Below, piece by piece: positions 27,927 through 55,380 of a stretch of DNA of 55,380 bases (its first letter is position 1; each line of letters begins with the position of its first letter). The position numbers and the translations under genes are program-made. Below the pieces are notes generated by a model. The model ran no database searches. It had not been told where the DNA came from and was given only the letters and a program-made list of their open reading frames with translations. Origin of the DNA: an uncultured Gammaproteobacteria bacterium (GTDB lineage Bacteria > Patescibacteriota > Microgenomatia > UBA10105 > UBA927); assembly GCA_964394685.1 (NCBI GenBank), contig CAYMYO010000004.1, positions 9,063 through 64,442 of the forward strand. Reading direction: 5' to 3'.

Positions 27927-29135
27927 ATGGGATTTTTTAAATACAAAGCAATTTCTCCAAATGGAAAGCCAACGATTGGTCTTGTTGAGGCGACTAGTGA
28001 AGATCAAGCATCAAAGTTACTGAAAGAAAAACAACTCTTCGTTATTTCATTGAAAGAGACGAGTGAAAAATCTATTACATCAAGGTTTGATAAGCTCCAA
28101 AAAGTCGGTTTTAATGATATTGTTAATTTTACCAGACAACTTTCAACAATGGTGACAGCTGGTCTTTCTATTCCTGATTCATTGAACATTCTTCATGCGC
28201 AGACAACAAATGCTCTCTTTGCACAGGTGTTATCAGATATCGAACGAGTAATTGTTGGAGGAGGAAATTTTGGCGATGCTTTAGCAAAATATCCGCAATA
28301 TTTTACGCCTATTTATATTTCTCTTATTCGAGCAGGTGAAGCTTCGGGAATGCTCGATAAGGTATTGGAACAACTCGCTGATACGCTTGAAGTTCAACGC
28401 GAGTTTCGGGGAAAAGTTGTTGGAGCGCTTATTTATCCAGCCATTATCGTTATTGGCATGGTAGTGGTTGTTATCATTATGATGGTTGTTGTTATGCCAA
28501 AACTGACGGATTTATACAAGGATTTTGGCGTAAAACTTCCTGTTACGACTCAGATGCTTATATCGTTGTCTAATTTTATTATCCATGATTGGTGGCTTGT
28601 TATTCTTATAGCAGCTGGAATATCGTATGGCTTTTCTCGATGGAAAAAAACAGACATCGGTGTGTATACGATTGACACCATCGCTTTAAAAATTCCTTTA
28701 TTTGGAGAACTTCAAAAAAAGACGATACTTGTTGAGTTTACCCGAACACTCGCTATGCTTTTATCAGCAGGTATTCATATCTTAGATGCATTGAAAATAT
28801 TAAAAAGCTCTTTAAACAATGTGCTGTATCGTAACGCAATAGAAGATATTTCTAAACGGGTTGAAAAAGGTTTTCAGCTGGCTGACACATTTGCCTCACA
28901 TAAAGAATTTCCTCCGATTGTATCTCAAATGCTTAAAGTTGGGGAGGAAACAGGAAAGATCGATGACACGCTCCTTAAATTATCCAATTATTTCCAGTCA
29001 GAAACAGAACAAATGGTGAAGGGCTTAACGACGGCAATTGAGCCGATCATCATGGTGGTATTGGGAGTTGGTATTGGATTTATTGTGCTGTCGGTTATTA
29101 CACCAATATATAATTTGACAGCACAATTTAAATAG
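27927..29135 (+). CDS. pilC: Type IV pilus platform protein PilC/GspF
   Basis: FTRQLSTMVTAG, GEASGMLD, GEETGKID, IEPI; three TM segments. Confidence 0.95.
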   Translation: MGFFKYKAISPNGKPTIGLVEATSEDQASKLLKEKQLFVISLKETSEKSITSRFDKLQKVGFNDIVNFTRQLSTMVTAGLSIPDSLNILHAQTTNALFAQVLSDIERVIVGGGNFGDALAKYPQYFTPIYISLIRAGEASGMLDKVLEQLADTLEVQREFRGKVVGALIYPAIIVIGMVVVVIIMMVVVMPKLTDLYKDFGVKLPVTTQMLISLSNFIIHDWWLVILIAAGISYGFSRWKKTDIGVYTIDTIALKIPLFGELQKKTILVEFTRTLAMLLSAGIHILDALKILKSSLNNVLYRNAIEDISKRVEKGFQLADTFASHKEFPPIVSQMLKVGEETGKIDDTLLKLSNYFQSETEQMVKGLTTAIEPIIMVVLGVGIGFIVLSVITPIYNLTAQFK

Positions 29136-29209: not shown

Positions 29210-29779
29210 ATGAGAAAAATAACTTTTCGCAAAGCCTGCCTGCCGGCGAGGCAGGGATTTACATTAGTAGAGCTTCTTATCGTTATCGCCTTGTTGGGAG
29301 CTTTGGCCATTGGTCTTATTGGAGCACTTGACCCATTTGAACAGCTCAAAAAAGGAACGGATACGGGAACACGGGATTTGGTAAACCAAGTCCAGACAGC
29401 AGTGCTACGGTATTATGCAACAACCAACAAAATGCCGTGGACAGATCAATCGACAGCGTTTAGTGCGACACTTCTTGACGCCGCAAATATGAATACAGCG
29501 ATCTCTTCTATGGCAGCAGCAGGAGAGATGAAATCGAATTTTAGTGTAATTTATAAAAATCAATTAGATAAAGTCTGGGTGACGTATGTACCTTCATCTC
29601 CAACAACATCTGTTGAAGTACGGGTATGTTATCAACCGGCCTCAAAATCATTTCAAGTTGATCCTGCAACGAAATATTTAAATGACCATACTGGAATTGA
29701 AAATACAACTAAAACAGGGGCAACAGCATGTAAGAGTAGTGATACAACAGGTGTTAATTGTGATTGGTGTGTTCAATAA
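29210..29779 (+). CDS. Type IV pilin, probable major pilin
   Basis: G|FTLVELL class III signal; dedicated promoter and SD; Ser/Thr-rich with C-terminal Cys residues. Confidence 0.9.
   Translation: MRKITFRKACLPARQGFTLVELLIVIALLGALAIGLIGALDPFEQLKKGTDTGTRDLVNQVQTAVLRYYATTNKMPWTDQSTAFSATLLDAANMNTAISSMAAAGEMKSNFSVIYKNQLDKVWVTYVPSSPTTSVEVRVCYQPASKSFQVDPATKYLNDHTGIENTTKTGATACKSSDTTGVNCDWCVQ
29235..29255. repeat. 21-bp mini-palindrome CCTGCCTGCCGGCGAGGCAGG in a prepilin leader
   Basis: Removal gives MRKITFRKG|FTL; identical to 36832-36852. Confidence 0.9.
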
Positions 29780-29784
29780 AAGAC

Positions 29785-31830
29785 GTGAAACGAACTATAA
29801 CACATAAACCGCGATGGATAACTATCGCGGTTTATGGTATTCCAGCAATTCTTTCTATCCTTTTTGCCTTTCTGTATGTGAGGATGCAAATGATTGGTTT
29901 GTATGGAGGAGATGCAGGAGATCTTGTAACCCATGCATATCTATTTGGGATTCCCCATCCACCAGGATATCCTCTCTATACATTGTTATCTGGATTGATT
30001 TCTCATAATATTCCTTGGAATTCTATTGAATGGAGAGTCGGACTCATGTCCTCTCTTCCAACTGCTCTGTCAATGTTTTTTCTTTGGCGGGTTATTTTCC
30101 GTATATCAAAATCCATTCTTGCTACTACCCTTGCAGTTATTTCTTATGGACTATTCGGTCCGGTATGGCTCAGTGCAATCACTCAGGAAGTCTTTGGAGT
30201 ATTTAGTTTATTGGCTGTCGTTTGGGTAGAACGGTATAGTACTTGGATAGAGGAGAAACAAACAAAACAACTTCTATTTCTTTCTTTTTGGACAGGATTG
30301 TCACTCACCCATCATCAATTAATTATTCTTTGTATCATTCCAGCTGTTTTTCTTGTTATTAGTCGATATAGAGACTTAGTAAAGCAAGCACTTTCCAATT
30401 GGTGGAAAATTTTTTTGTGTGTATTGATTGGACTGCTTCCCTATCTCTATATACCATTTTCCGCGCGATTTAGCACACTATTTACTCAGGAGAATGCATC
30501 GACAATCGAAGGATTTTTTCGTTTAGTGACACGGGCATCGTATGGATCTTTTCGTGCGACAGCCAATATGACCCCGACGATAATCGATCGTCTGCTCAAT
30601 GTATTTACTTTTTTTCAATTTTCCCTTCGTGATCTCGGTATTGTTGGCTCTTTTGTTCTTTTTATTGGTGTTGTTGTGCTACGAAATAAGCAGCGTGGTG
30701 TGTATGATTATTTGCTTGGATGCCTTTTTTTATGGATATTTTATTTTTTCTATGCGGGATTTCCTCAACTATTAAATTATCAAATCGGAACAATAGAGAG
30801 GTTTTTTGTCATTCCTTATCAATATTTTGTCATCTTTCTTTCTGTTGGAATTTCTTGGTTCATTGATACAATCAGAGAAAGATTTCTCAAAAGGCCAATA
30901 ATAGCAAAATTAGGCATCAGCGTATTTTGTGTTTTTATTGTGTATGCATCATGGCCGCGTATTCAAACAAATATTCGTGCGTTTACTTATCTTAAGAACG
31001 ATCATTCAATGGAGAAACTCGCTGATGATCTCCTTGCGAGCGCACCAAAAAACAGCATTCTTTTTCTTTCCGAAGATACTACGATCTATACTATGTATGA
31101 CGCGCTATATGTACATGGGCTTCGACCTGATGTTCATTTTATTCGTCCTCAATTTTTATCTCTCCCCCATTATCGAGCATATATTCGTAAAGCATATCCC
31201 GACCTTTACGTTCCGCCGGAGAAACAAGGGACATCGACTAGTGAAGTAATTTCTGATTTTATGACAAGAAATATGCAACAGTATCCTATCATGAGTGATC
31301 AACCGCTATCGTGGATTGATGGGTTATGGCTTCCGCATGGACTTTTGTATTTGTATTTTCCTGATAAAAACGGAACTCTTGATTATGCACCCCTTTATGA
31401 GATTAATCAGAATCTTTGGAAGCAATTTTCTCTACCAGAATCATTATTTTTGTATCAAAAAGAATTACCGATGCTTTCTGATGTCCTTCGGGTCTATAGT
31501 CAACACCGGGTGAATCTTGCAAATATAGCTGTTCTTGCGCATATGCCTCTGACAAACATTCTGCCTGAGCTTCAAGAGGCGCTTCGATTAGCGGTGAATA
31601 TCGTACCGGAATATTATCTTTCGCCAGTTATCTTGTTATTAAAAGATAATCGGTGTTTTGACGCAAAAGAAGTATTGGCGGTTGTTTACAGAACCTGGGG
31701 AGCTGACAAGGCGGTGTTGCGTCAGTATGTATCATGGCAAGATGCGTGTGGATCAGACGATGAAGTTGATGGTATTGTCACTTTATTCCGAAAACAGTTT
31801 CCGAAGGAAACGGATGCGCTTTCGAAATAA
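29785..31830 (+). CDS. DUF2723/TMEM260-like GT-C membrane glycosyltransferase
   Basis: GGDAGDL...GIPHPPGYPLY signature, multiple TMs; GTG start at 29785 preferred. Confidence 0.85.
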   Translation: MKRTITHKPRWITIAVYGIPAILSILFAFLYVRMQMIGLYGGDAGDLVTHAYLFGIPHPPGYPLYTLLSGLISHNIPWNSIEWRVGLMSSLPTALSMFFLWRVIFRISKSILATTLAVISYGLFGPVWLSAITQEVFGVFSLLAVVWVERYSTWIEEKQTKQLLFLSFWTGLSLTHHQLIILCIIPAVFLVISRYRDLVKQALSNWWKIFLCVLIGLLPYLYIPFSARFSTLFTQENASTIEGFFRLVTRASYGSFRATANMTPTIIDRLLNVFTFFQFSLRDLGIVGSFVLFIGVVVLRNKQRGVYDYLLGCLFLWIFYFFYAGFPQLLNYQIGTIERFFVIPYQYFVIFLSVGISWFIDTIRERFLKRPIIAKLGISVFCVFIVYASWPRIQTNIRAFTYLKNDHSMEKLADDLLASAPKNSILFLSEDTTIYTMYDALYVHGLRPDVHFIRPQFLSLPHYRAYIRKAYPDLYVPPEKQGTSTSEVISDFMTRNMQQYPIMSDQPLSWIDGLWLPHGLLYLYFPDKNGTLDYAPLYEINQNLWKQFSLPESLFLYQKELPMLSDVLRVYSQHRVNLANIAVLAHMPLTNILPELQEALRLAVNIVPEYYLSPVILLLKDNRCFDAKEVLAVVYRTWGADKAVLRQYVSWQDACGSDDEVDGIVTLFRKQFPKETDALSK

Positions 31831-33936
31831 TAGAGCAGAAAGTACTACCAATAGTGTGCATCCGGATATGAGTATTCCAATGATAAATGATTTTGGTGTA
31901 TATTGAAGTTTAATGACATGTTTTCCTGCTGGTACGATAAGAGCAGTTGACGAGATATTTGCTGGATAGAGTGTGGTTTTTTTCCCATCGATAGTTCCCT
32001 CCCATCCTGGATAAAACGTGGTATTCAATATAGCTGGCGTTTCGTTTAGTGTTGAGGTTTTTACAACAATTTTCTGATCAGACCATAATACGACGGAAAG
32101 CGCATCGGATTGAGATAGCTGTATTTGTTTTTTTGTACTTATTCCTTCAAGTAGTGCTGTTGTTTTTGGATCGAAATTCGAATCACTTAGTGCTCTTATT
32201 GCGTTAGTTATGGTTGACACCGGTATGATAGTTGAAACAAAATGTACGCGAGGAATATGAGATGGTAGTTGGTAAAGATAGAGGGTACTGACTCCATCCG
32301 AAATTTTCTCAACAAGCGGAAAAATATCGTGCGTGTCAAGAATTTCCCCGGAGATAATACTAGAATTACCAAGTAGTGTCAGCAAATTAGTCGCCAGAGC
32401 GCTCATGGTTGCGATATGATCAGTTGAAGTTTCTATATGTTCCTTGATGATTTGATCAGCTGTTTGTTTTCTTGAAAGGGTACGGCTTGGATATGCATCA
32501 AATGTGGTAACTTTCCAGAAGATATTGGTATTTGGCCGTAATGCATTTTGGAAGATCGTATATTGACCCGGATTTATCCATCCGTATTGCATATACACAT
32601 ATCTGTGTTGCCAGGTGGGATTATATCTATACACGATAGTATCATTTGGAACAATTTTTGCGAATGTCGGTATTTCTATGATTTCTTTTGGCAGTTTCCA
32701 CTCATGGTAGGAGTACCAGTACGGAAGAAGGCTGATGAGATTAACGACTAAGCAGAGTGAGATAAGAATGGTTATCCATCGTTTTTTCATATAATACGAG
32801 AATATTGAACTGATGGTAATGAGCATAAAACTGACGAGAATAACAAACCGTGCTGGTACGCGAAAGAGTGTAAACGGGAAGAAATCATAAATAAAATAAA
32901 AGGGTGAAAATTTACCCAACATAAGAAGAATGCTGATGCAGAGAAGTATAATAAAGGGTTTTATTTTCTCCCATGATTTTTTTACAAAAAGTATGATCGT
33001 CAGCAATACGATAGGTAGTATTCCAACAAATCCGTTTGTTTCCCAAAAAAGAAGGCCTTCATCGTTGGAGTTGACATAATAGGTCGCATATTTCGGATTG
33101 CCGATGGCAAACGGATTGAGAAAAGAAAGAAAACTTTTTAAGGCAAATGAATATTTAGAAGAAAAGCCAATGTTCCCTGATTGATCCACAATATTTCGGG
33201 AAAACTCAATTGACGGAATAAGCTGCGGGGCTGCAAGAAGAATTCCTATTATGTATGAAGATATAAGAAAAAGTACTCCGCGTATATTTTTCCCCGATTG
33301 TTTCCATAAGAAAAATGCATATACGGCTGATCCGATTGCTGTAATGAACACTGCCTGGATAAATCCAGCGAATATTTGTTGAGAAAAAAGTATTGAAAAA
33401 AAAGCGACGTCTTGTAATCGTTGCTTTTTAATAACCTGATGTGTCGCAACGAAAATTAAGGGTAATACGCTAAAGCTTTGTAGGAGCGTTATATGTTGAA
33501 GATGAAATACAAAAAACCCGCTGCCTGCAAATGTCAAAGCACTGATAATTGCGACGGTCCAAGGTATCTGTAGGAGTGAGAGCCACCAAAAAGTTCCAAG
33601 CGCTGCTGTTATGGTAACAAGTACAAGTGAAAGATTATACGCAAATGGAGCTGATGGAGATAAGCCGTAAAGAAGAAGATTTGGCAGAAAAAAAATACCG
33701 GTCTGCCCTTCACCAAGAACAGGAAACCCTGCCCCCATGTGCGTTGACCAAAAGGGTAACTCACGCGCATGTAATTTTTCCCAATACCAATATTTAGATG
33801 CGTAACTTAATTGTACTGCATCATTTAGTTCAAATTCGGGAGTTGCAACAATACGAAGTTCAGGAACAAATAATTTCCAGTTGAAAAGAAACGAGACGAG
33901 AATGATAATTGTAATCGCTAACAGATGTCGTTTCAT
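31783..33936 (-). CDS. YfhO-family GT-C membrane glycosyltransferase
   Basis: PFWSTHMGAGFP, many TMs, C-terminal FYPGWEGTIDG...PAGKHVIKLQY. Confidence 0.85.
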   Translation of the reverse strand: MKRHLLAITIIILVSFLFNWKLFVPELRIVATPEFELNDAVQLSYASKYWYWEKLHARELPFWSTHMGAGFPVLGEGQTGIFFLPNLLLYGLSPSAPFAYNLSLVLVTITAALGTFWWLSLLQIPWTVAIISALTFAGSGFFVFHLQHITLLQSFSVLPLIFVATHQVIKKQRLQDVAFFSILFSQQIFAGFIQAVFITAIGSAVYAFFLWKQSGKNIRGVLFLISSYIIGILLAAPQLIPSIEFSRNIVDQSGNIGFSSKYSFALKSFLSFLNPFAIGNPKYATYYVNSNDEGLLFWETNGFVGILPIVLLTIILFVKKSWEKIKPFIILLCISILLMLGKFSPFYFIYDFFPFTLFRVPARFVILVSFMLITISSIFSYYMKKRWITILISLCLVVNLISLLPYWYSYHEWKLPKEIIEIPTFAKIVPNDTIVYRYNPTWQHRYVYMQYGWINPGQYTIFQNALRPNTNIFWKVTTFDAYPSRTLSRKQTADQIIKEHIETSTDHIATMSALATNLLTLLGNSSIISGEILDTHDIFPLVEKISDGVSTLYLYQLPSHIPRVHFVSTIIPVSTITNAIRALSDSNFDPKTTALLEGISTKKQIQLSQSDALSVVLWSDQKIVVKTSTLNETPAILNTTFYPGWEGTIDGKKTTLYPANISSTALIVPAGKHVIKLQYTPKSFIIGILISGCTLLVVLSALLFRKRIRFLRKLFSE

Positions 33937-35198
33937 ATATGGGATGTATACGTTGATGCTATATCCAGAACTAAAAATAGTGAGACAAAATAGTACACAT
34001 TAAAAAATGCATGGTAGGAAAAGAAATGAAAGCTAAACACGACAAGTGCGATGGAATAATATAAACCGGGCTTTCTCCATAGGATGAGGACATAGACGAT
34101 AAGTAGGATGATAAGTGGGAGTATGAGTCCGTATAATGGTCCGAGAGATATTCCAGCACGTAAGAATAATGTTTGAACGGTAAGGCTACTTCCGATAGGA
34201 CTTGTGATTGATGTTTTAGATAGACCTGTGAATACATCTTGAATAAAAGCCGCAGGATTTAGAAAAAAGTAATAAAGTGGAAAAACCAATGGAATAGTAA
34301 ACGCGAGAACATATTTACTGTGTTTTGTCATTTGAATAATAAAGGGAGATAGAAACAGCGGAAACGTCGTCCATGGTGTTTGTTTAAATAAGAAAAAAAA
34401 GGACAAAAAAACATAAGACAATGTCTTACGATTCATTGCTGTGAAATATATAAATACAGCAAAGACAGATACGATAATTGGATCAAGATACATATGCTCC
34501 AATATAAAAAACGACCGAGGAAGAAAAAGTATTATTAACACAAGCCAAGAAGCAGTGTTTCGTCTTTTTGATTTTTTTGCTATACGACATATGACTAGTG
34601 AAATGATAAGCATTGCGAGTATGGTGCTATATCGTGGATCATTGAAAAAATAGACAAATGGAATTAAAAAAAGAAAACTGGCTGGTAGGTAGTTGTAATA
34701 TGTTGGATCAATAGTTGGATAAACAGCTGAAAACCGTTCAGCATATGGATTTAACCCGCGCAGGACCATCATCGGTGCTTCTTTTAAAACTACTATCGTA
34801 TCGACAATAGGATGTTGCGAACCAATCAATGTTAGTAGAGATAGAAAAAGATAAATAATAATTGACCAGATAATAGAAGGTGGCTCTCGTTTAAAATACC
34901 ATCGTACGGTTGCGACAAGCGAAAATACTACCATGATAGCCATTCCGATCGTTTGTGTGAACAGATTTTGATACAGTCCTCCATAATAGAATGAACTGTA
35001 AAAAAGAAGCACGATACTAATCAATGGAAGAAATTTTTGTGATGTAGTTATTTGTAGTGTTCTTTTTGGAACAAATAATATTACGACAAATAGAACACAT
35101 ACACTTATCAGTATGAGAAATGATGGAAAAGAAAAAAAACCAAGGTTTGGTGTGATACCGAATAGGAGCAGAAGTAACAAAAGAAATTTTAATTCCAT
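33933..35198 (-). CDS. GT-C-like polytopic membrane protein (GT87-like), putative glycosyltransferase
   Basis: DTIV...GLNPY...YNYLP loop, FKQTPW, about 11 TMs. Confidence 0.65.
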   Translation of the reverse strand: MELKFLLLLLLLFGITPNLGFFSFPSFLILISVCVLFVVILFVPKRTLQITTSQKFLPLISIVLLFYSSFYYGGLYQNLFTQTIGMAIMVVFSLVATVRWYFKREPPSIIWSIIIYLFLSLLTLIGSQHPIVDTIVVLKEAPMMVLRGLNPYAERFSAVYPTIDPTYYNYLPASFLFLIPFVYFFNDPRYSTILAMLIISLVICRIAKKSKRRNTASWLVLIILFLPRSFFILEHMYLDPIIVSVFAVFIYFTAMNRKTLSYVFLSFFFLFKQTPWTTFPLFLSPFIIQMTKHSKYVLAFTIPLVFPLYYFFLNPAAFIQDVFTGLSKTSITSPIGSSLTVQTLFLRAGISLGPLYGLILPLIILLIVYVLILWRKPGLYYSIALVVFSFHFFSYHAFFNVYYFVSLFLVLDIASTYTSHI

Positions 35199-35233
35199 AA
35201 GGTTTATTATCTCGTTTGCATTATAATAGATTT

Positions 35234-35956
35234 ATGGAAGTTGTGGTATTTTTTATAGGAATTTGTATTGGGTCTTTTTTGAATGTGCTCATTGATCGTC
35301 TGCCTATTGGACAGGACATTACAAAAGGCCGCTCACACTGTGACCATTGTAAGCGCACCCTTTCTTGGTATGAACTGGTTCCTGTTGTCTCATGGATCAT
35401 TCAGTTAGGGAAAAGCCGGTGTTGCAAAAAGCGTCTTTCATTTCAATATCCTTTGGTTGAACTGATAACCGGGTTTGTGTTTGTCCAGCTGTATGTGTTG
35501 TTTTTTTCAACGCCATTGCTGTTTATAGCATATTGTTGTATATCCATGGCTATCATTGTTCTTTTCGGAACGGATTTGAAATTTGAACTGCTCCCGACTC
35601 CCCTTCTTGTTCTGTGGGGAATTGGCATAGTGCTACGATTTATTGCGATTCATCCATCAGCTACAGAATTGTTGTATGTTTATGGTATCCCCTCTTTTAT
35701 CGCCGGGCTATTTTTCTTTTTCCTGTGGTTTTTTTCAAAAGGACGGGCTATGGGTGATGGTGATATATGGCTTGCGATTCTTATCGGACTGGTTACTGGA
35801 TATCCTGGAATAATTATTGCGTTATATATAGCTTTCTTGACGGGTGCAGCTGTGGGTGTCATACTCATTTTAGGAAGGTTGAAGACGTTAAAAAGTCATA
35901 TTCCTTTCGGGCCATTTTTATTATTTGGCATGATAGTTGAACAATTATGGTTATGA
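35234..35956 (+). CDS. pilD: Prepilin peptidase PilD
   Basis: GSFLNVLIDR, RSHCDHC...CC, Asp in GTDLK and MGDGD, PFGPFL; ATG 6 nt after TATAAT. Confidence 0.93.
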   Translation: MEVVVFFIGICIGSFLNVLIDRLPIGQDITKGRSHCDHCKRTLSWYELVPVVSWIIQLGKSRCCKKRLSFQYPLVELITGFVFVQLYVLFFSTPLLFIAYCCISMAIIVLFGTDLKFELLPTPLLVLWGIGIVLRFIAIHPSATELLYVYGIPSFIAGLFFFFLWFFSKGRAMGDGDIWLAILIGLVTGYPGIIIALYIAFLTGAAVGVILILGRLKTLKSHIPFGPFLLFGMIVEQLWL

Positions 35957-36375
35957 AAAAAACATGCCTGCCTGCCGGCAGGCAGGCTTTCTCTCTTATC
36001 GAATTACTTGTTGTGATTGCGCTTATTGGTATTTTGGTTGCTATCGCAACGGTTTCCTACACTACTATCCAAAAAAGGTCTCGTGATAGCAGGCGGGTCA
36101 CTGAACTGAAAGCGGTTCAGCAAGCGATGGAACAATATTATTCAAATACGCAATCATCATATCCAGGGAGTTGTTCCGGATTGGGTATCACCTATTTACC
36201 TAATGGTATGCCATCAGATCCTCAGACAGGCGTTCGTTATGATGATGCATCTCTATCGAGTTGTTCCTCAACGTCCTATTGTTTTTGTGTTTCTATGGAG
36301 GTCGGAAGCGGCAATGCGACCACTAATTGTTCAGGAACAGCCGGAGCGTTCTATTGTATTAGAAATGTTCAATGA
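35953..36375 (+). CDS. Type IV pilin / GspG-like
   Basis: A|FSLIELL, RDSRR, YP...PSDP. Confidence 0.88.
   Translation: MKKTCLPAGRQAFSLIELLVVIALIGILVAIATVSYTTIQKRSRDSRRVTELKAVQQAMEQYYSNTQSSYPGSCSGLGITYLPNGMPSDPQTGVRYDDASLSSCSSTSYCFCVSMEVGSGNATTNCSGTAGAFYCIRNVQ
35967..35986. repeat. 20-bp perfect palindrome CCTGCCTGCCGGCAGGCAGG in a prepilin leader
   Basis: Encodes part of CLPAGRQ; identical to 44694-44713. Confidence 0.9.
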
Positions 36376-36388
36376 AGAAAGGAAAAAT

Positions 36389-36829
36389 ATGAAAAAAGCC
36401 ATGCCTGCCGGCAGGCAGGGTTTTACACTTATTGAAATTCTTATCTCAATAGCTATTATTGCGGTATTAACTGCTCTTGGTATTGTTTCCTATGTGAGTA
36501 TTAACAAAAATGCACGTGATGCAAAACGTCGGGGAGATATCGAACAAATTCGATCAGCACTTGAATTGTACAGGTCAGATAATGGGTTTTATCCGGCAGT
36601 GGGTTCACTTGGTTGGGTTGATGTAAGTGAATTATCCATAGCTTTGGTTGATACCTATTTTCCTAGTATCCCATCAGATCCACAAAATACGTCATATCGG
36701 TATAAAGGAACGAACGACTATTACGGATATTGTTTGGAAGCGAAAGTCGAAAATGCAGATATAGCTGCTGATACATGCGGATCAATTGAAACAGGTGAGG
36801 GTTATAATTATGGAACGAAGAACCCGTAA
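36389..36829 (+). CDS. GspG-like type IV pilin
   Basis: Start moved to ATG 36389 after GAAAGGA; G|FTLIEIL, RDAKRRGDI...ALELYRSDNG.YP, PSDP. Confidence 0.88.
   Translation: MKKAMPAGRQGFTLIEILISIAIIAVLTALGIVSYVSINKNARDAKRRGDIEQIRSALELYRSDNGFYPAVGSLGWVDVSELSIALVDTYFPSIPSDPQNTSYRYKGTNDYYGYCLEAKVENADIAADTCGSIETGEGYNYGTKNP
36399..36419. repeat. 21-bp mini-palindrome CCATGCCTGCCGGCAGGCAGG in a prepilin leader
   Basis: Removal gives MKKG|FTL; identical to 37758-37778. Confidence 0.9.
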
Positions 36830-37313
36830 AGCCTGCCTGCCGGCGAGGCAGGCCTTCACGTTTATTGAACTGATTATTGTTATTGCGATTATTTTGGTTA
36901 TATCGCTTGGAGTTATTGTTAATTACAACTCGTATACAGATCGCGAACGTGTTCGTCAATCAGGACTCACCATTAAATCAGATATGAGACTTGTTGCTTC
37001 AAAAGTTAATTCTGGAGTGAAATCTACCACATGTGCAACGCTTGTTAGCTACGATGTTACGTTTACTACAATTTGTTCTGACGGAATTAGATCGTGTTAC
37101 ACTATTACTCCTCGTTGTTCAAATGGGCTCGGTGAGGAAGTAACAGTGTATATTCCAAAAGAAGTCCATTTTCAATCTGCTGATCAAACAATTCGATTTT
37201 TACCCTTATCTCTTGGAACGAATTTAACAACAGATGCTGTCATTACTCTTGGTGGCTATTCGGCAGTATATACCATTAAAATTAGTCCATCTGGAATTAT
37301 TAGTGATTATTAA
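36810..37313 (+). CDS. Minor pilin (FimT/GspH-like)
   Basis: A|FTFIELI; start ATG at 36810. Confidence 0.82.
   Translation: MERRTRKACLPARQAFTFIELIIVIAIILVISLGVIVNYNSYTDRERVRQSGLTIKSDMRLVASKVNSGVKSTTCATLVSYDVTFTTICSDGIRSCYTITPRCSNGLGEEVTVYIPKEVHFQSADQTIRFLPLSLGTNLTTDAVITLGGYSAVYTIKISPSGIISDY
36832..36852. repeat. 21-bp mini-palindrome in a prepilin leader
   Basis: Removal gives MERRTRKA|FTF. Confidence 0.9.
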
Positions 37314-37314
37314 T

Positions 37315-37746
37315 ATGCGTGGAGTATCACTTATTGAAGCAGTTGTTACCCTTGGGGTGGTGATACTTCTTATTACCGGACTTGTCGTCGGCATGACGTC
37401 GTCACTTCAAAACGCGCAGACAAGTAAGACGCGTGCAATTGCTATCCAATACGCGCAAACAGCACTCGAAATAGTGCGGCAAGAACGGGATCTTGATTGG
37501 ACAACATTCGCTTCACGAGACACAACAGGTATTAAAACTGATTATTGTTTGGGTAGTTCTGAACAGCTAAGCGTGTTAGTTGATTCTACCTGCACTCCTT
37601 TTAGCGGCTCTTTTTCTCGATTGGTTTCGTTTACAAAAAATCTTACTGATCCGGGACAGATGGATGTCGTCGTTACGGTATCCTGGATAGAAGGAAGTAC
37701 ATCAAAAGACATTACCTTGAAAACAAAATACACACAGTGGAAATAA
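37315..37746 (+). CDS. Minor pilin (PilV-like)
   Basis: MRG|VSLIEA; start ATG at 37315; no palindrome in leader. Confidence 0.82.
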   Translation: MRGVSLIEAVVTLGVVILLITGLVVGMTSSLQNAQTSKTRAIAIQYAQTALEIVRQERDLDWTTFASRDTTGIKTDYCLGSSEQLSVLVDSTCTPFSGSFSRLVSFTKNLTDPGQMDVVVTVSWIEGSTSKDITLKTKYTQWK

Positions 37747-37747
37747 T

Positions 37748-38347
37748 ATGAAAAGAGCCATGCCTGCCGGCAGGCAGGGTTTTACACTACTTGAGTTACT
37801 TGTCGCTTCAGGTGTTATTGCGTTTGTTTCCGTTATTATTACGCAAGTTCTTTTTTCAAGTATCCACTTAAACACAAAAACTGAGGTTATAAAGGAATTA
37901 AAACAAACGGGAGAAATGACGTTGGGGGCAATGAGTCGAATGATTCAAAACGCTGCTTCTGTAATGGTTTCTCAATGTAATCTAAGCACTGATGATCCCA
38001 AGCAAATAGTGCCAACTGTTGAAATTACAGCGTTAAACGGCGGAATTACCACTATTGAATGCATCGATGATGCTATAGCTGGTGTTACCAGAATTGCTTC
38101 GATGAGTGCCTCACGAATTGATCCGTTATATATAACCAATAGTAATGTTACGTTGATAGATAATACTGGTGCTAGCGGTTGTTCGAATCAACCATTGCAA
38201 TTTACGTGCGTTGGTGTTGGAGGAATACCAACCTCCCTTAGTGTACGATTTCGTCTTCGTCAAAAAAATCTTGCAGCAACATCGTATGAAAGCGCGTTTG
38301 AAACATTTCAAACAACAATTAGTGTTCGAAATTCCACAAATGAATAA
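37748..38347 (+). CDS. Minor pilin (PilW-like)
   Basis: G|FTLLELL; C-terminal FETFQTTISVRN. Confidence 0.82.
   Translation: MKRAMPAGRQGFTLLELLVASGVIAFVSVIITQVLFSSIHLNTKTEVIKELKQTGEMTLGAMSRMIQNAASVMVSQCNLSTDDPKQIVPTVEITALNGGITTIECIDDAIAGVTRIASMSASRIDPLYITNSNVTLIDNTGASGCSNQPLQFTCVGVGGIPTSLSVRFRLRQKNLAATSYESAFETFQTTISVRNSTNE
37758..37778. repeat. 21-bp mini-palindrome in a prepilin leader
   Basis: Removal gives MKRG|FTL. Confidence 0.9.
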
Positions 38348-38383: not shown

Positions 38384-39223
38384 ATGAGCGCATCACTTTA
38401 TAAAGGACAAGTGCTTCTTATTACAGTTCTTGTTTTAAGTATCACTGTGACTATAGCATTGTCACTTATTGGACGAAGTGTAACAGACGTCAGTATGAGT
38501 CGAAATATGGAGGAATCTGCACGAGCTTTTAGTGCGGCTGAGGCAGGTATTGAAGAAGCACTTCGAACAAATATCATGCAAACGAATAGTTCATATACTC
38601 CCGGTGCAGGATATACGTCAGACATCGCTGTTATTGGGGATAGTACTGGAGTGTATACGCTCCCCACTATTACAGTTGGACAAGCCGATACGATTTGGTT
38701 AGTCGGTCATAACGCATCAAATGGTATTGATGAATCTTTATATTATCAAAACTCAACAATCGATATTTGTTGGGGCCATTCAACTCCAACCCCTGCTTTA
38801 GAAGTTGCCATATATTACAAATCAGGCGGAACGTATTTGGTTACTCGCGGTGCGTATGATCCTGATGCCGCTACAAGACCAGCAAATAATTTTTCAACAG
38901 TTACTGATTACGATAATATAAGCGGCGGATGCGGTGCAATGACCAATGTGTATCGACAAACTGTAACGATACCTGCAGGAATTCCGTTATTTATGCGCAT
39001 ACGGCCATATTATGGTAATGCAACGATCAGCGTTGCTCCGCTTGGCGGCAATAAACTTCCAAAACAAGGTGTTGAGGTAACATCTATTGGCTGTACACAA
39101 ATAACAGCGAGTGGGTGCACAGAAGGCGGAGTGACTCGTAAGATTGTTGTACGGCGGGAATATGCAGGACCAGCAACAATTTTTGATTATAGTATATACA
39201 GCCAAGGATCTCTTGTGCATTAA
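38384..39223 (+). CDS. Minor pilin (PilX-like)
   Basis: KG|QVLLITVL, SARAFSAAEAGIEEAL. Confidence 0.85.
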   Translation: MSASLYKGQVLLITVLVLSITVTIALSLIGRSVTDVSMSRNMEESARAFSAAEAGIEEALRTNIMQTNSSYTPGAGYTSDIAVIGDSTGVYTLPTITVGQADTIWLVGHNASNGIDESLYYQNSTIDICWGHSTPTPALEVAIYYKSGGTYLVTRGAYDPDAATRPANNFSTVTDYDNISGGCGAMTNVYRQTVTIPAGIPLFMRIRPYYGNATISVAPLGGNKLPKQGVEVTSIGCTQITASGCTEGGVTRKIVVRREYAGPATIFDYSIYSQGSLVH

Positions 39224-39238
39224 TTAGTATTCCTGCCT

Positions 39239-40258
39239 ATGCAAAGTTTACTAGGAATTGATATCGGGAGTCGCAGCATTAAACTCATTGAAATAAGTGA
39301 GGAAAAAGGCGTACGAACGCTCATGGCGGCAGGTAGCATGCCCACTCCACCCAAAAGTACAACGTCCGTTAATTCAGACATTGATGCAACCTCCTATATT
39401 ATTAAGCAGTTAGTGAGGGATACCGGAGCGAAATCAGATCAAGTGAATGTTGCGCTACCTGAGGCGCAAGTTTTTACCCGTGTTATCGAGGTTCCTCAGT
39501 TATCAAGTAAAGAGTTAAACTCTGCTATTCAATGGGAAGCTGAACAATATATTCCACTTCCACTTGATCAGGTTAATTTAGATTTTACGATTCTTCAAGA
39601 TGCAAAAACAACTGGTACTGGAAAAATGCAGGTACTTCTCGTCGCTGCTCCAAAAGCACTCATTGAAAGGTATATGACGATTATTGAATTGTCAGACCTC
39701 GTTCCTGTTGCCGCGGAAACAGAAATTATTGCGTCTGCACGAGCAATTGAGGTATCTGTTGCAAATTTAAAAAATTATATGATTGTATCTATGGGTGCAC
39801 AGACAACAGATATATCAATTTTGCATACGGGGATATTGATATTTACCCGTTCAATAAGCGCGGGTGGAGAAGCATTAACACGGGCATTAACACAAAGTTT
39901 AGATTTTAATCCCGCTCAAGCGGAAGAATACAAAAAAACGTACGGATTAAATAAAGAGGTGCTTGAAGGGAAATTGGTCATTTCACTGGAGCCGATTATG
40001 ATGTCGGTAATTAATGAAATAAAACGCTCCATCGCGTTTTTTGGTGAACGGTATCCGAATGAGCGACTCGATGCGATTGTTGTCAGTGGAGGTAGTTCAA
40101 AGCTTCCTGGAATTGTTTCGTATATCGCCGGGTCAGTGAATATTGAAACACAGATAGCAAATCCTTGGATTGGTATTCAAAAGGAAGCACGATTTGCTGT
40201 TCTTGATACCGAGGGACCAATCTTTACTGTTGCAGTTGGACTTTCCATGAGGAGATAG
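39239..40258 (+). CDS. pilM: Type IV pilus assembly protein PilM
   Basis: LGIDIGSRSIK actin-like motif, WEAEQYIP, SGGSSKLPG, VAVGLSMR. Confidence 0.92.
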   Translation: MQSLLGIDIGSRSIKLIEISEEKGVRTLMAAGSMPTPPKSTTSVNSDIDATSYIIKQLVRDTGAKSDQVNVALPEAQVFTRVIEVPQLSSKELNSAIQWEAEQYIPLPLDQVNLDFTILQDAKTTGTGKMQVLLVAAPKALIERYMTIIELSDLVPVAAETEIIASARAIEVSVANLKNYMIVSMGAQTTDISILHTGILIFTRSISAGGEALTRALTQSLDFNPAQAEEYKKTYGLNKEVLEGKLVISLEPIMMSVINEIKRSIAFFGERYPNERLDAIVVSGGSSKLPGIVSYIAGSVNIETQIANPWIGIQKEARFAVLDTEGPIFTVAVGLSMRR

Positions 40259-44049: not shown

Positions 44050-46113
44050 TTAATCCTGTGAAACATTTTCTATTTTACTCTCATTTAAGCGCTCTCTCAA
44101 GAGGGGAAAAGCATTAAACGTAGGATCAATGCATGTTAACTTCGAAACTGCGTCTTTTGTTTGAGAAACAAGAGTGGCATCTGATAACGATCCAAGAACA
44201 AGTGTCGGGATTCCGTGTTGGCGGCTGCCAAAGACATCTCCCTGACCTCGAAGTTTGAGATCATATTCAGCAAGTTCTGTACCGTTATGCATTGTTTCCA
44301 GAGCTTTTAAACGCGTCATTGTATCCGGATTGGTATTATCTGAAAAGAGAAGACAATAGGATTGTTTGTCACTGCGTCCTACCCGTCCGCGGAGCTGATG
44401 AAGTTGCGCAAGGCCAAACCGATCAGAGCCTTCAACGAGCATAATGGTAGCATTGGGAATATCAATTCCTACTTCAACAACAGGAGTCGCCACTAATATA
44501 TCAATGTCTTTATTTCGAAATGCATCAAGAATACTCGATTTTTCTTTTGTTTTTAGTTTGCCATGCAGAAGTCCGAGTTTGAGATTTGGAAAGACAGAGG
44601 TAGATAATCTCGTAAATTCAGTCGTGGCGGCTTTGATGGTTTTCATGGATTCCGATTCCTCGATAAACGGACAAATAATAAAACACTGTGAACCCTGCCT
44701 GCCGGCAGGCAGGTGTGACTCTTTTATTTCTTTTTTTATCCATGCGTAGGCATCATCACGTTTTTCTGGGGGAACCACCCAGGTTTTAATGTTTTGTCTT
44801 CCTTTAGGCATTTCAGTGAGTTGAGACAGGTCGAGATTGCCGTAGAGCGTAAGAGCAAGGGTTCTGGGGATCGGAGTAGCGGTCATGGTAAGGAGATGTG
44901 GTGTGGTTGTCCCCTTCACTTTTGTGCGAATCAGGTTTCGTTGAAATACGCCAAATCGTTGTTGTTCATCAATAACGACAAGTCCGACGTTTTGAAATTC
45001 AATTTTGTTTTCTAATAACGCATGCGTGCCGACGAGTATTTTGTATTTTGTATCTTGTCTTTTGTATTTACCTCCAGTGATCAGGCCGACACTAATGCCA
45101 AACGGTTCGAGGAGTTGTTTAATGGTATTGAAATGTTGTTCAGCAAGGATTTGGGTCGGTGCCATGAGGATGGACTGGAGATGATTTTTTGCAGTAATAT
45201 ACATGGCTATTGCCGCAACCACGGTTTTTCCGCTCCCGACATCTCCCTCAAGAAGCCGATTCATAGGAGTTGTTGATGCAATATCCGTTTGAATATCTTT
45301 AAACGCTTGCAATTGACTACTCGTGAGAGTAAATGGAAGTTTTGTGATAAATGAATTTATTTCTTGAGAAGAAGTAGTGAGTGAGGTCGCATGCTTTGTT
45401 TCTTTCCACAATCGTTTTTGCTCAAAGGACATACATTGCATAAGAAGCAGTTCGTCAAACGCGAGCCTTCGCCTGGCTTCAACTCCAATTGCAATTGTTT
45501 TTGGAAAATGCACATCATGAAGTGCTTCCTGAATGTGCGGGAGCGTATATGTTATCCGTATGTTCTCGGGTATGTATTCTTCAATGAGCGTTGGTACTTC
45601 GGTTAACAGATAATAGATTCGTGATCGTAACCATTTTGACGTAATACCGGTTGTTTCTGAATAGACTGGAACCACTCGACCAGTGTGAAGGAATGGTTTG
45701 CCAGGAGTTGCAAGTTCATAATCCGGAGATTCTAACACGAGTTTGTTTCCGAAAAAACCAACGGTTCCTGAAGCAGCGAGTATATCGCCTGCCTGGATGA
45801 TTTTCGGTAAATACAATTGGTTAAACCATATAATTGTCGCAATTCCTGTAGAATCCTCGACACGACATTCCTGAATTTTCTTTCCTGTTTTGGTAAAGAT
45901 GTTTTTGATACTTAATACCGTCCCATGGATACTGATGACCGTCCCTGGATGCAGTGATCGAATGGAAGTAACGAGCGAAAAATCGTTGTAGCGGAAAGGG
46001 GCGTAAAAAAGAAGATCCCGTACCGTATGAATTCCGAGTCGTTCCAACTTACCAGCGATCGATGGACCCACACGGGGGACGTATTGAATAGAAGAGCTCA
46101 GTCGTAAGGTCAT
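44050..46113 (-). CDS. recG: ATP-dependent DNA helicase RecG
   Basis: RRRLAFDE, EGDVGSGKT, DEQQRFG, MTATPIPRT, QLHQLRGRVGR, DLKLRGQG. Confidence 0.96.
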   Translation of the reverse strand: MTLRLSSSIQYVPRVGPSIAGKLERLGIHTVRDLLFYAPFRYNDFSLVTSIRSLHPGTVISIHGTVLSIKNIFTKTGKKIQECRVEDSTGIATIIWFNQLYLPKIIQAGDILAASGTVGFFGNKLVLESPDYELATPGKPFLHTGRVVPVYSETTGITSKWLRSRIYYLLTEVPTLIEEYIPENIRITYTLPHIQEALHDVHFPKTIAIGVEARRRLAFDELLLMQCMSFEQKRLWKETKHATSLTTSSQEINSFITKLPFTLTSSQLQAFKDIQTDIASTTPMNRLLEGDVGSGKTVVAAIAMYITAKNHLQSILMAPTQILAEQHFNTIKQLLEPFGISVGLITGGKYKRQDTKYKILVGTHALLENKIEFQNVGLVVIDEQQRFGVFQRNLIRTKVKGTTTPHLLTMTATPIPRTLALTLYGNLDLSQLTEMPKGRQNIKTWVVPPEKRDDAYAWIKKEIKESHLPAGRQGSQCFIICPFIEESESMKTIKAATTEFTRLSTSVFPNLKLGLLHGKLKTKEKSSILDAFRNKDIDILVATPVVEVGIDIPNATIMLVEGSDRFGLAQLHQLRGRVGRSDKQSYCLLFSDNTNPDTMTRLKALETMHNGTELAEYDLKLRGQGDVFGSRQHGIPTLVLGSLSDATLVSQTKDAVSKLTCIDPTFNAFPLLRERLNESKIENVSQD
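44694..44713. repeat. 20-bp palindrome CCTGCCTGCCGGCAGGCAGG inside recG
   Basis: Encodes part of HLPAGRQG, just before the SQCFIICP strand. Confidence 0.9.
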
Positions 46114-54597: not shown

Positions 54598-55380
54598 TTA
54601 GAATTGTTTTAAAAATCGTACATCATTACTATAAAGCAACCGAATATCATCAATATTTGTATTGGATTTCATCATGGATGTCCGTTCCACTCCCCAACCA
54701 ATAGCAAATCCGCTGTATTTACTTGGATCAACGCCGCCATTTTGAAGTACGACCGGATGGATCATGCCGGAACCGGCAAGTTCGAGCCATCCTTCTTTAC
54801 ACAAACGGCAACCCTGCCCGTCCGGCAGGCGGGCCTTACCACCGCACACGCCACAGGAGATATCTACCTCAAATGATGGTTCAGTAAATTGAAAATGAAA
54901 TGGTCGTAGACGGAATTTTCTTTCGGATCCAAAGTATTGTTTGACAAAATAATCAATAAACCCTTTAAGGTGGCCGATTGAGACATTACGGTCGATATAC
55001 ATTCCTTCAAATTGATGAAACATTGGTGTATGCGATATATCGATTTGTCTTCGGTAGCATTTAGCAATGTTTATCATGCGTATTGGCAGCATTCCTTTTT
55101 CCATTTCCCGTACTTGTCCGTTACTTGTATGTGGGGTTAATACGATTTTTTGTTTTTTATAATCGCTTTCTGGTTGTCCAGGATATTTGATGTAGAATGT
55201 CTCCCATTCGTCGCTTGCTGGATGACTGTGCGGCATATTGAGTGATTCAAACGGATACCAATCCCAATCAACTTCCGGATGTCGAACACGGGTAAAACCT
55301 ATTTTATTGAATATGGTTGTTATTTCTTCAATTGCTTGGGTGACAATATGAAGATGTCCTTGCGGAGGAAGATCTCCGGG
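54598..55380 (-). CDS. pheS: Phenylalanyl-tRNA synthetase alpha subunit (5' part outside window)
   Basis: Frame open to the window edge (GHLHIVT...LNMPHSHPA); HTPMFHQFEG, FQFTEPS, ELAGSG, FAIGWGVER. Confidence 0.96.
   Translation of the reverse strand, partial: PGDLPPQGHLHIVTQAIEEITTIFNKIGFTRVRHPEVDWDWYPFESLNMPHSHPASDEWETFYIKYPGQPESDYKKQKIVLTPHTSNGQVREMEKGMLPIRMINIAKCYRRQIDISHTPMFHQFEGMYIDRNVSIGHLKGFIDYFVKQYFGSERKFRLRPFHFQFTEPSFEVDISCGVCGGKARLPDGQGCRLCKEGWLELAGSGMIHPVVLQNGGVDPSKYSGFAIGWGVERTSMMKSNTNIDDIRLLYSNDVRFLKQF
54813..54833. repeat. 21-bp mini-palindrome CCTGCCCGTCCGGCAGGCGGG inserted in frame in pheS
   Basis: Removal converts CGGKARLPDGQGCRLC into the usual CGGKGCRLC. Confidence 0.9.

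Follow-up and report, generated by a model that had tools for sequence, protein, structure and literature searches.

A recurrent 20- to 21-nucleotide palindrome in prepilin leader codons of an ultra-small candidate phyla radiation bacterium, probably a very small insertion element

Rickettsia palindromic elements (RPEs) are reportedly about 100 to 150 bp long, occur in Rickettsia only and fall into families RPE-1 to RPE-8; they are said to be inserted in frame and translated, while the host proteins stay functional. Miniature inverted-repeat transposable elements (MITEs) have terminal inverted repeats and a target-site duplication and measure 50 to 500 bp. The small dispersed repeats (SDRs) of Nostoc and other cyanobacteria are reported to be mobile, about 21 to 27 nt long, often nested within other repeats or hairpins, and without a recognizable transposase or target duplication; we know of no report that associates them with prepilin leaders. 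We describe here a GC-rich palindrome of 20 to 21 nt in the prepilin genes of a type IV pilus locus, located in a 55,380-nt stretch of DNA (the window; contig CAYMYO010000004.1, positions 9,063 to 64,442, of assembly GCA_964394685.1). The palindrome is probably a very small insertion element that underwent a burst in this genome and was retained in the cleaved leaders of prepilins.

Two further systems offer points of comparison. Repetitive extragenic palindromic (REP) sequences and REPINs, with the Y1 HUH protein RAYT, are short GC-rich hairpin repeats, presumably mobilized in trans as single strands (PMC3116915). REPs are extragenic imperfect palindromes, often arranged as inverted doublets, and flank the RAYT gene; the term small dispersed repeats also appears in that paper (PMC3116915). 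The Ssn GIY-YIG single-strand nucleases are small proteins that recognize NTS/SRM hairpin repeats scattered through genomes, and they are linked to natural transformation (Chenal et al. 2025, PMC11893778). Numbering in the hundreds, SRMs measure about 30 nt, have oriented sides that are not palindromic, and flank ssnA (PMC11893778).

The window belongs to a 1.0-Mb genome with a GC content of 40% (G000), from an ultra-small bacterium of the candidate phyla radiation (CPR); the source names on pilin homologues and related contigs are Candidatus Gottesmanbacteria of the CPR/Microgenomates. Its type IV pilus locus comprises pilC, prepilin gene A, the prepilin peptidase gene pilD, prepilin genes B to F in a row, a PilX-like gene, and pilM (Table 1). 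The palindrome occurs in five of the seven prepilin-like genes, where its 3′ end adjoins the Gly or Ala codon at position −1; the genes at 37315 and 38384 have none. The encoded leaders are MRKITFRKACLPARQG^F for gene A, MVMKKTCLPAGRQA^F for B, MKKAMPAGRQG^F for C, MERRTRKACLPARQA^F for D, and MKRAMPAGRQG^F for F (carets mark junctions). No palindrome matches were found in dinucleotide-preserving shuffles of the window. The initial annotation had reported the count of five in seven and the palindrome coordinates, all of which are correct on a re-scan, and the identity of the copies at 29235 and 36832, at 36399 and 37758, and at 35967 and 44694 (the last in recG) was verified in the sequence. 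The AAAG or AGAG target that it had proposed is found at four leader copies but not at the copy at 35967, which is preceded by ...AAAACATG. Its description of the longer copies as the 20-mer plus one base that keeps the frame is right, but these are not local repairs; the 21-nt forms are widespread subfamilies. A sixth prepilin copy of G000 lies outside the window, on contig C6 at about 2589. There the palindrome is split centrally by a second hairpin (GCTTCGCC..GGCGAGC), a nested insertion that gives the leader KKSLPAGPLRRIEASRQG^F.

The leader inserts are derived, not ancestral leader sequence, because same-genus orthologues have unfilled sites. The orthologous operon was taken from all six same-genus genomes (G001 to G006), and orthologues without the insert exist for all five genes, so the ancestral origin that the initial annotation had named as a refuting outcome does not hold. 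Gene A is unfilled in G003, G004, and G006 (MRKITLRK^GF) and in G002 (MKRQK^GF); the unfilled DNA site in G003 and G006 reads CGCAAA^GGATTT, and the gene of G000 is 21 nt longer. Gene B is unfilled in G002 (MAKRPA^F) and in G003, G004, and G006 (MVKRG^F), and gene C in G002 (MKRG^F) and G005 (VKKG^F). Gene C of G004 has independently gained the other variant (MKMKK[ACLPARQ]G^F, inserted residues in brackets). Gene D is unfilled in G001, G004, and G005, holds a diverged copy in G002 (NARLLARQA), and retains relics in G006 (TPAGRRG) and G003 (KPANRQG). Gene F has an intact copy in none of the six congeners, with possible but uncertain decayed relics in G004 (..KKNRQG) and G006 (..YTCRSG). Also among the unfilled same-genus prepilin leaders is MNKHG^GF. 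The closest relative is G002, whose operon is collinear with that of G000 over 3.1 kb at 77% DNA identity. At least four of the leader inserts (A, B, C, and F) postdate the split of G000 and G002, and insertion into prepilin leaders was recurrent, with at least six separate events within the genus. Relative to G000, the gene D copy of G002 (L023, G002:C3) has TC for CT and T for C; these three substitutions jointly yield a perfect stem of 6 bp, CTCGCC-TGCT-GGCGAG, in a new register. They may represent decay by chance, a change that preserved structure, or a switch to another hairpin family.

The palindrome is a mobile, patchily distributed, non-coding mini-insertion found genome-wide. The basic form, a perfect palindrome, consists of CCTG/CAGG tetranucleotide units and spans 20 nt; the 21-nt subfamilies have one added base. 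G000 contains about 30 copies, and five of the six congeners contain none. The identical 20-mer occurs in other families and orders, with up to 27 copies per genome, and about 30 IMG/VR viral contigs bear it exactly (maximum of six copies on one contig). Relative to G002, the spacer copy at C13:9460 adds exactly 20 nt without target duplication, and coding copies add a net 21 or 18 nt; the coding sites compared were those in recG (21 nt shorter in the G002 orthologue), ribosomal protein S18, two other open reading frames (ORFs; contigs C1 and C5), and a giant surface protein of 6303 residues, where the copy is N terminal at the site AATAAA^GGATTT. Lon and an LCP-like ORF likewise show net coding insertion relative to other congeners. 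The element has a stop codon in no frame and in long ORFs is mostly read as LPAGRQ. The 20-mer is also present in tRNA genes or fragments at C4:7363, C9:11451, and C11:36971, at sites where relatives are 19 to 20 nt shorter: the 3′ strand of the T-arm, the position after the D-arm of a truncated tRNA-Asp, and the variable loop. There are 17 copies of the 21-nt form with an extra central G or C in G028 and 13 in G029; the form with an extra central A has 9 in G015. The CCATG form (CCATGCCTGCCGGCAGGCAGG) occurs in more than 120 metagenome stretches and is read as AMPAGRQ in many unrelated proteins. Because the 21-nt variants are widespread subfamilies, the identical pairs of the window need no special explanation; they are members of these subfamilies, not gene-conversion products. 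A pilin-specific lineage of the AMPAGRQ 21-mer was ruled out, with 75 of 79 metagenome contexts being non-pilin.

Prepilin leaders are strongly over-represented among the copies. In G000, six of eight prepilin genes have one (Poisson p = 2e-14 for leader copies against uniform insertion over the genome). Sites matching AARGGNTTY are filled in 3 of 4 cases in prepilin genes and in 1 of 226 elsewhere (Fisher p = 8e-6); leaders are thus enriched over target-site frequency, in keeping with the initial annotation. By a crude scan, a basic N-terminal region precedes a hydrophobic stretch in about 226 other ORFs; these regions (about 5.3 kb in all) hold one copy, that of the giant protein. Among the approximately 200 copies in 40 genomes of relatives, about 2% (four; in G004, G020, G023, and G029) lie in prepilin leaders, as do 4 of the 79 metagenome contexts of the 21-mer, an unbiased set. 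Two further metagenome contexts (L253 and L249) fall at an N-terminal [K/R]^G-F of non-pilin proteins. These proteins are the thymidylate kinase Tmk (MKR^GFFIVFEG) and a signal-like protein (MNQK^GFSQLILV). When pilin homologues were sought by words of the mature region only, about 12 of 118 had a PAGRQ-type leader, in each case adjoining Gly(−1). Species-representative genomes were also scanned with a query of the half-palindrome followed by [GA]-F-x-x-x-E, and of the 31 stretches that it returned, 27 are genuine ...PAGRQG^FTLIELL prepilin N termini. They come from many Patescibacteria classes, Margulisiibacteriota, and metagenome-assembled genomes labelled Gammaproteobacteria.

Tolerance of the leaders alone is insufficient for this bias, because spacers and other basic N termini offer more sequence and hold few copies. 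A pure selective filter, in which insertion is random and leaders are among the few sites that tolerate seven added residues, would account for the remaining copies at protein termini, loops, and spacers, and the flank and loop preferences of G000 failed replication elsewhere. We nevertheless regard such a filter as unlikely. A generous count of stop-to-stop ORFs leaves no more than about 6% of the genome as spacer DNA, some 400 times the 130 to 200 nt of leaders; yet spacers hold about 8 to 10 copies, counted from contexts, against 6. The 226 other basic N termini amount to about 40 times the leader sequence and hold the single copy noted above. All leader copies, including those of the roughly 12 unbiased homologues, lie at the last leader junction, next to Gly(−1), and none at other leader junctions. 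Tolerance is still the obvious part of the explanation, and it is plausible because only Gly(−1) is reported to be strictly required in PilD substrates. Copying from leader to leader, with one insertion followed by short-patch gene conversion or template switching among the paralogous leaders of G000, would fit the identity of A with D and of C with F, the presence of CATGCCTGCC in genes B, C, and F and in the N-terminal copy of the giant protein, and the six leader copies of G000 versus none or one in relatives with 14 to 27 copies in total. The A and D flanks, however, diverge directly beyond AAAG and the 21 nt, a pattern that speaks against gene conversion over long tracts, and both 21-nt variants are widespread outside pilins, as the copies in G028 and G029 and the metagenome contexts attest. 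This course of events, too, seems to us improbable.

A selected function of the hairpins, whether in damping translation initiation or as intercistronic REP-like stabilizers of the pilin operon, is a still poorer fit and quite improbable. The hairpins have predicted energies of −13 to −18.5 kcal/mol and begin +10 to +26 nt from each ATG, the G000 copies are still perfect, and the substitutions in gene D of G002 form a new perfect 6-bp stem; but most orthologues and about 90% of homologues lack the hairpin, the G003 and G006 relics have decayed, and the same element sits in unrelated genes and tRNA genes. It is hardly credible that the leaders are ancestral and were lost in relatives, or that the repeats are crossover points for shuffling pilin bodies. 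The repeats are common to paralogues, and nothing further speaks for either idea. Parsimony is against the former, with gene A filled in G000 only and unfilled in four congeners that include the closest; the collinearity with G002 leaves the exchange of pilin bodies, an alternative raised in the initial annotation, without support.

The reading that we prefer, a very small insertion element with a burst in G000 and retention in prepilin leaders, can be set out as follows. The element would spread patchily within and between lineages without target duplication, and in G000 would have placed at least four new copies in prepilin genes since the split from G002. Each of these copies would sit at Lys^Gly-Phe codons and end, on its 3′ side, with the initial G of the Gly/Ala(−1) codon. 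Whole-codon outcomes alone would survive, with a net gain of 21 or 18 nt read as ...(C)LPA(G)RQ. These extra residues would lie in the class III signal leader and be removed by the operon's own A24 peptidase. Because they sit in the removed leader, the mature pilin would be unchanged and the insert near-neutral. The lengthened leaders are probably still cleaved by PilD. The leader bias would combine tolerance with a second factor, a local preference, in insertion or in retention, for the AAR^GGN-TTY site near the start, and an enzyme acting in trans on the DNA hairpin would presumably mobilize the element. The notion of leaders as a safe harbor, put forward in the initial annotation, draws support from the unfilled orthologues, the enrichment, and the A24 peptidase gene in the operon. 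More tentatively, and with some doubt, we raise the possibility that the Lys^Gly-Phe cleavage-site codons are an active landing pad for cosmopolitan 20- to 21-nt "nano-elements" with a "leader-peptide stowaway" strategy. Insertion just upstream of Gly(−1) would then let the host peptidase erase the protein footprint, and a hairpin 10 to 26 nt past the start codon could also modulate pilin expression. If this is true, the elements are among the smallest mobile DNAs known.

Several observations weigh against the preferred reading. Three relatives rich in the element (G026 with 27 copies, G015 with 18, and G039 with 14) have none in prepilin leaders, so that the six of G000 are an outlier and its events perhaps not independent; part of the leader pattern may be a burst with leader-to-leader hits. 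The non-pilin flanks of G000 have A at −3 in 58% of cases (p = 3e-4), but A at −3 is not enriched in 37 de-duplicated sites of other genomes (36%) or in 42 viral sites. Stems of at least 4 bp bracket 37.5% of the G000 insertion points versus 15% of random positions (p = 0.008), but this inverted-repeat or loop preference was not replicated in relatives (p = 0.94) and viral contigs (p = 0.39). The trans-acting enzyme was not found, and in G000 it is other hairpins that flank the Y1 gene and the inspected small GIY-YIG genes.

Both a sequence targeting rule and a hairpin-loop targeting rule were dropped, as the respective G000 signals failed to replicate elsewhere. The preferred Lys-Gly codon target of the initial annotation fits the A-rich flanks of G000 but not the other genomes and viral contigs, where that signal was not reproduced. 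The only flank signal that persists beyond G000 is avoidance of T at −1, beside the element. AAA-GGN-TTT forms a small inverted repeat of its own, and the loops of ATCCTGAA...TTCAGGAT hairpins harbor two palindrome copies. A translation constraint could favor the junction farthest from the ATG.

Candidate mobilizers were sought in G000 and its relatives. The sole Y1_Tnp gene of G000 (IS200/RAYT-like, 205 amino acids; C12:4762-5377, region C12:4726-5421) is flanked by TCAAGGCCnGGCCTTGA palindromes, which form a separate REP-like family. A RAYT mobilizer was rejected: most relatives have a Y1 gene without a clean correlation with copy number, and G020 has copies but no Y1. Small GIY-YIG genes number 12 in G000 versus 2 to 8 in congeners and are abundant in all relatives. 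Two of the seven inspected loci (C2:99509-99733 and C2:169883-170107) have flanking hairpins of the forms ATCCTGAA...TTCAGGAT and ATGCTGAA...TTCAGCAT; the others are flanked by unrelated palindromes or none, and the CCTGCC palindrome was found at none of the seven. The 21-nt hairpins that flank GIY-YIG genes are of the ATCCTGAAnnnnnTTCAGGAT / ATGCTGAAnnnnnTTCAGCAT type in an Ssn/SRM-like arrangement and also occur at C1:181626 and C12:1395. An Ssn-type GIY-YIG mobilizer was likewise rejected, given the abundance of the genes in all relatives and the other hairpins at those inspected in G000. Across relatives, the presence of Y1 or GIY-YIG genes does not cleanly match copy number.

Table 1. Genes of the type IV pilus locus and copies of the palindrome in the window (inserted residues in brackets; carets mark junctions)
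Feature	Coordinates	Strand	Basis or remark
pilC-type platform protein (T2SSF)	27927..29135	+	Pfam PF00482, E=6.6e-62
Prepilin A, major-pilin type, MRKITFRK[ACLPARQ]G^FTLVELL	29210..29779	+	N_methyl motif
Prepilin peptidase PilD (peptidase A24)	35216..35956	+	PF06750, E=1e-31; PF01478, E=2.2e-7
Prepilin B, MVMKKT[CLPAGRQ]A^FSLIELL	35947..36375	+	Leader translation
Prepilin C (GspG-like), MKK[AMPAGRQ]G^FTLIEIL	36389..36829	+	Leader translation, homologues
Prepilin D, MERRTRK[ACLPARQ]A^FTFIELI	36810..37313	+	Leader translation
Prepilin E, MRG^VSLIEAVV, without insert	37315..37746	+	Leader translation
Prepilin F, MKR[AMPAGRQ]G^FTLLELL	37748..38347	+	N_methyl Pfam hit
PilX-like minor pilin (PilX_N-like), MSASLYKG^QVLLITV, without insert	38384..39223	+	N terminus
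pilM	39239..40258	+	PF11104, E=5.6e-62
21-nt palindrome CCTGCCTGCCGGCGAGGCAGG, extra central G	29235..29255		Gene A, inserted at cgcaaaG^Gattt
Perfect 20-mer CCTGCCTGCCGGCAGGCAGG	35967..35986		Gene B; palindromy reaches 22 nt at 35966-35987
21-nt variant CCATGCCTGCCGGCAGGCAGG	36399..36419		Gene C
21-nt CCTGCCTGCCGGCGAGGCAGG, same as 29235 copy	36832..36852		Gene D
21-nt CCATGCCTGCCGGCAGGCAGG, same as 36399 copy	37758..37778		Gene F
Perfect 20-mer CCTGCCTGCCGGCAGGCAGG in recG, read LPAGRQ	44694..44713	minus (recG, 44050-46113)	In frame

The assignment as type IV prepilins rests on a short basic leader, Gly or Ala at −1, Phe at +1, Glu at +5, and about 20 hydrophobic residues. Genes A and F have N_methyl Pfam matches, homologues bear PF07963 and PF08334, and the cognate A24 peptidase PilD and the assembly genes for PilC and PilM are all in the locus. 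Downstream of the major pilin gene, positions 29764-33936 encode a TMEM260-like protein O-mannosyltransferase and a YfhO-like membrane protein, and these adjoining genes suggest that the major pilin is glycosylated. A second palindrome type, CCTGCCGGACGGGCAGG, read as RLPDGQ, lies at 54814-54828 on the minus strand, between both CxxC knuckles of a PheS-like ORF. The PheS of metagenome contig L182 has an AMPAGRQ 21-mer a few residues from the corresponding loop site, and the PheS loop looks like another recurrent insertion harbor.

The locus provides a natural experiment in which selfish mini-repeats persist in essential surface-organelle genes by way of a discarded peptide. For annotation, it means that leaders of 11 to 20 residues with ...PAGRQG^F are footprints of the element, not a new signal type. 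With filled and unfilled orthologous sites, subfamilies, and a known peptidase, it is also a tractable system for the study of inter-phylum movement of transposase-less 20-nt palindromes. Natural transformation uses type IV pili, and CPR bacteria depend on the machinery of the type IV pilus and DNA uptake; if the targeting is real, it would tie hairpin DNA elements to this machinery. Text searches of the literature returned no paper with the DNA or peptide strings, or with a prepilin leader and a palindromic in-frame insertion.

Compared with the systems introduced above, the palindrome resembles RPEs in being a translated in-frame coding insertion (in recG, S18, Lon, the pilins, and the giant surface protein), but it is 20 to 21 nt long, is spread over CPR classes, further phyla, and viral contigs, and is concentrated in a cleaved leader. 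It shares with SDRs the very small size, the nesting, and the lack of duplication and of a recognizable transposase, and differs from them in lineage and sequence. MITEs are a poorer match, as the element has only 20 to 21 nt and adds exactly 20 nt at C13:9460 without duplication. With REP/RAYT it has in common dispersed short GC-rich repeats that form hairpins; here, however, the palindrome is perfect, its copies are mostly intragenic singletons, and the Y1 gene is flanked by another palindrome. The likeness to Ssn/SRM lies in the dispersed hairpin repeats and the 12 small GIY-YIG genes of G000, but at those inspected the flanking hairpins are of the ATCCTGAAnnnnnTTCAGGAT type and the CCTGCC palindrome is missing. 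The closest functional counterparts are RPEs and cyanobacterial SDRs, and the closest mechanistic models REP/RAYT and Ssn/SRM.

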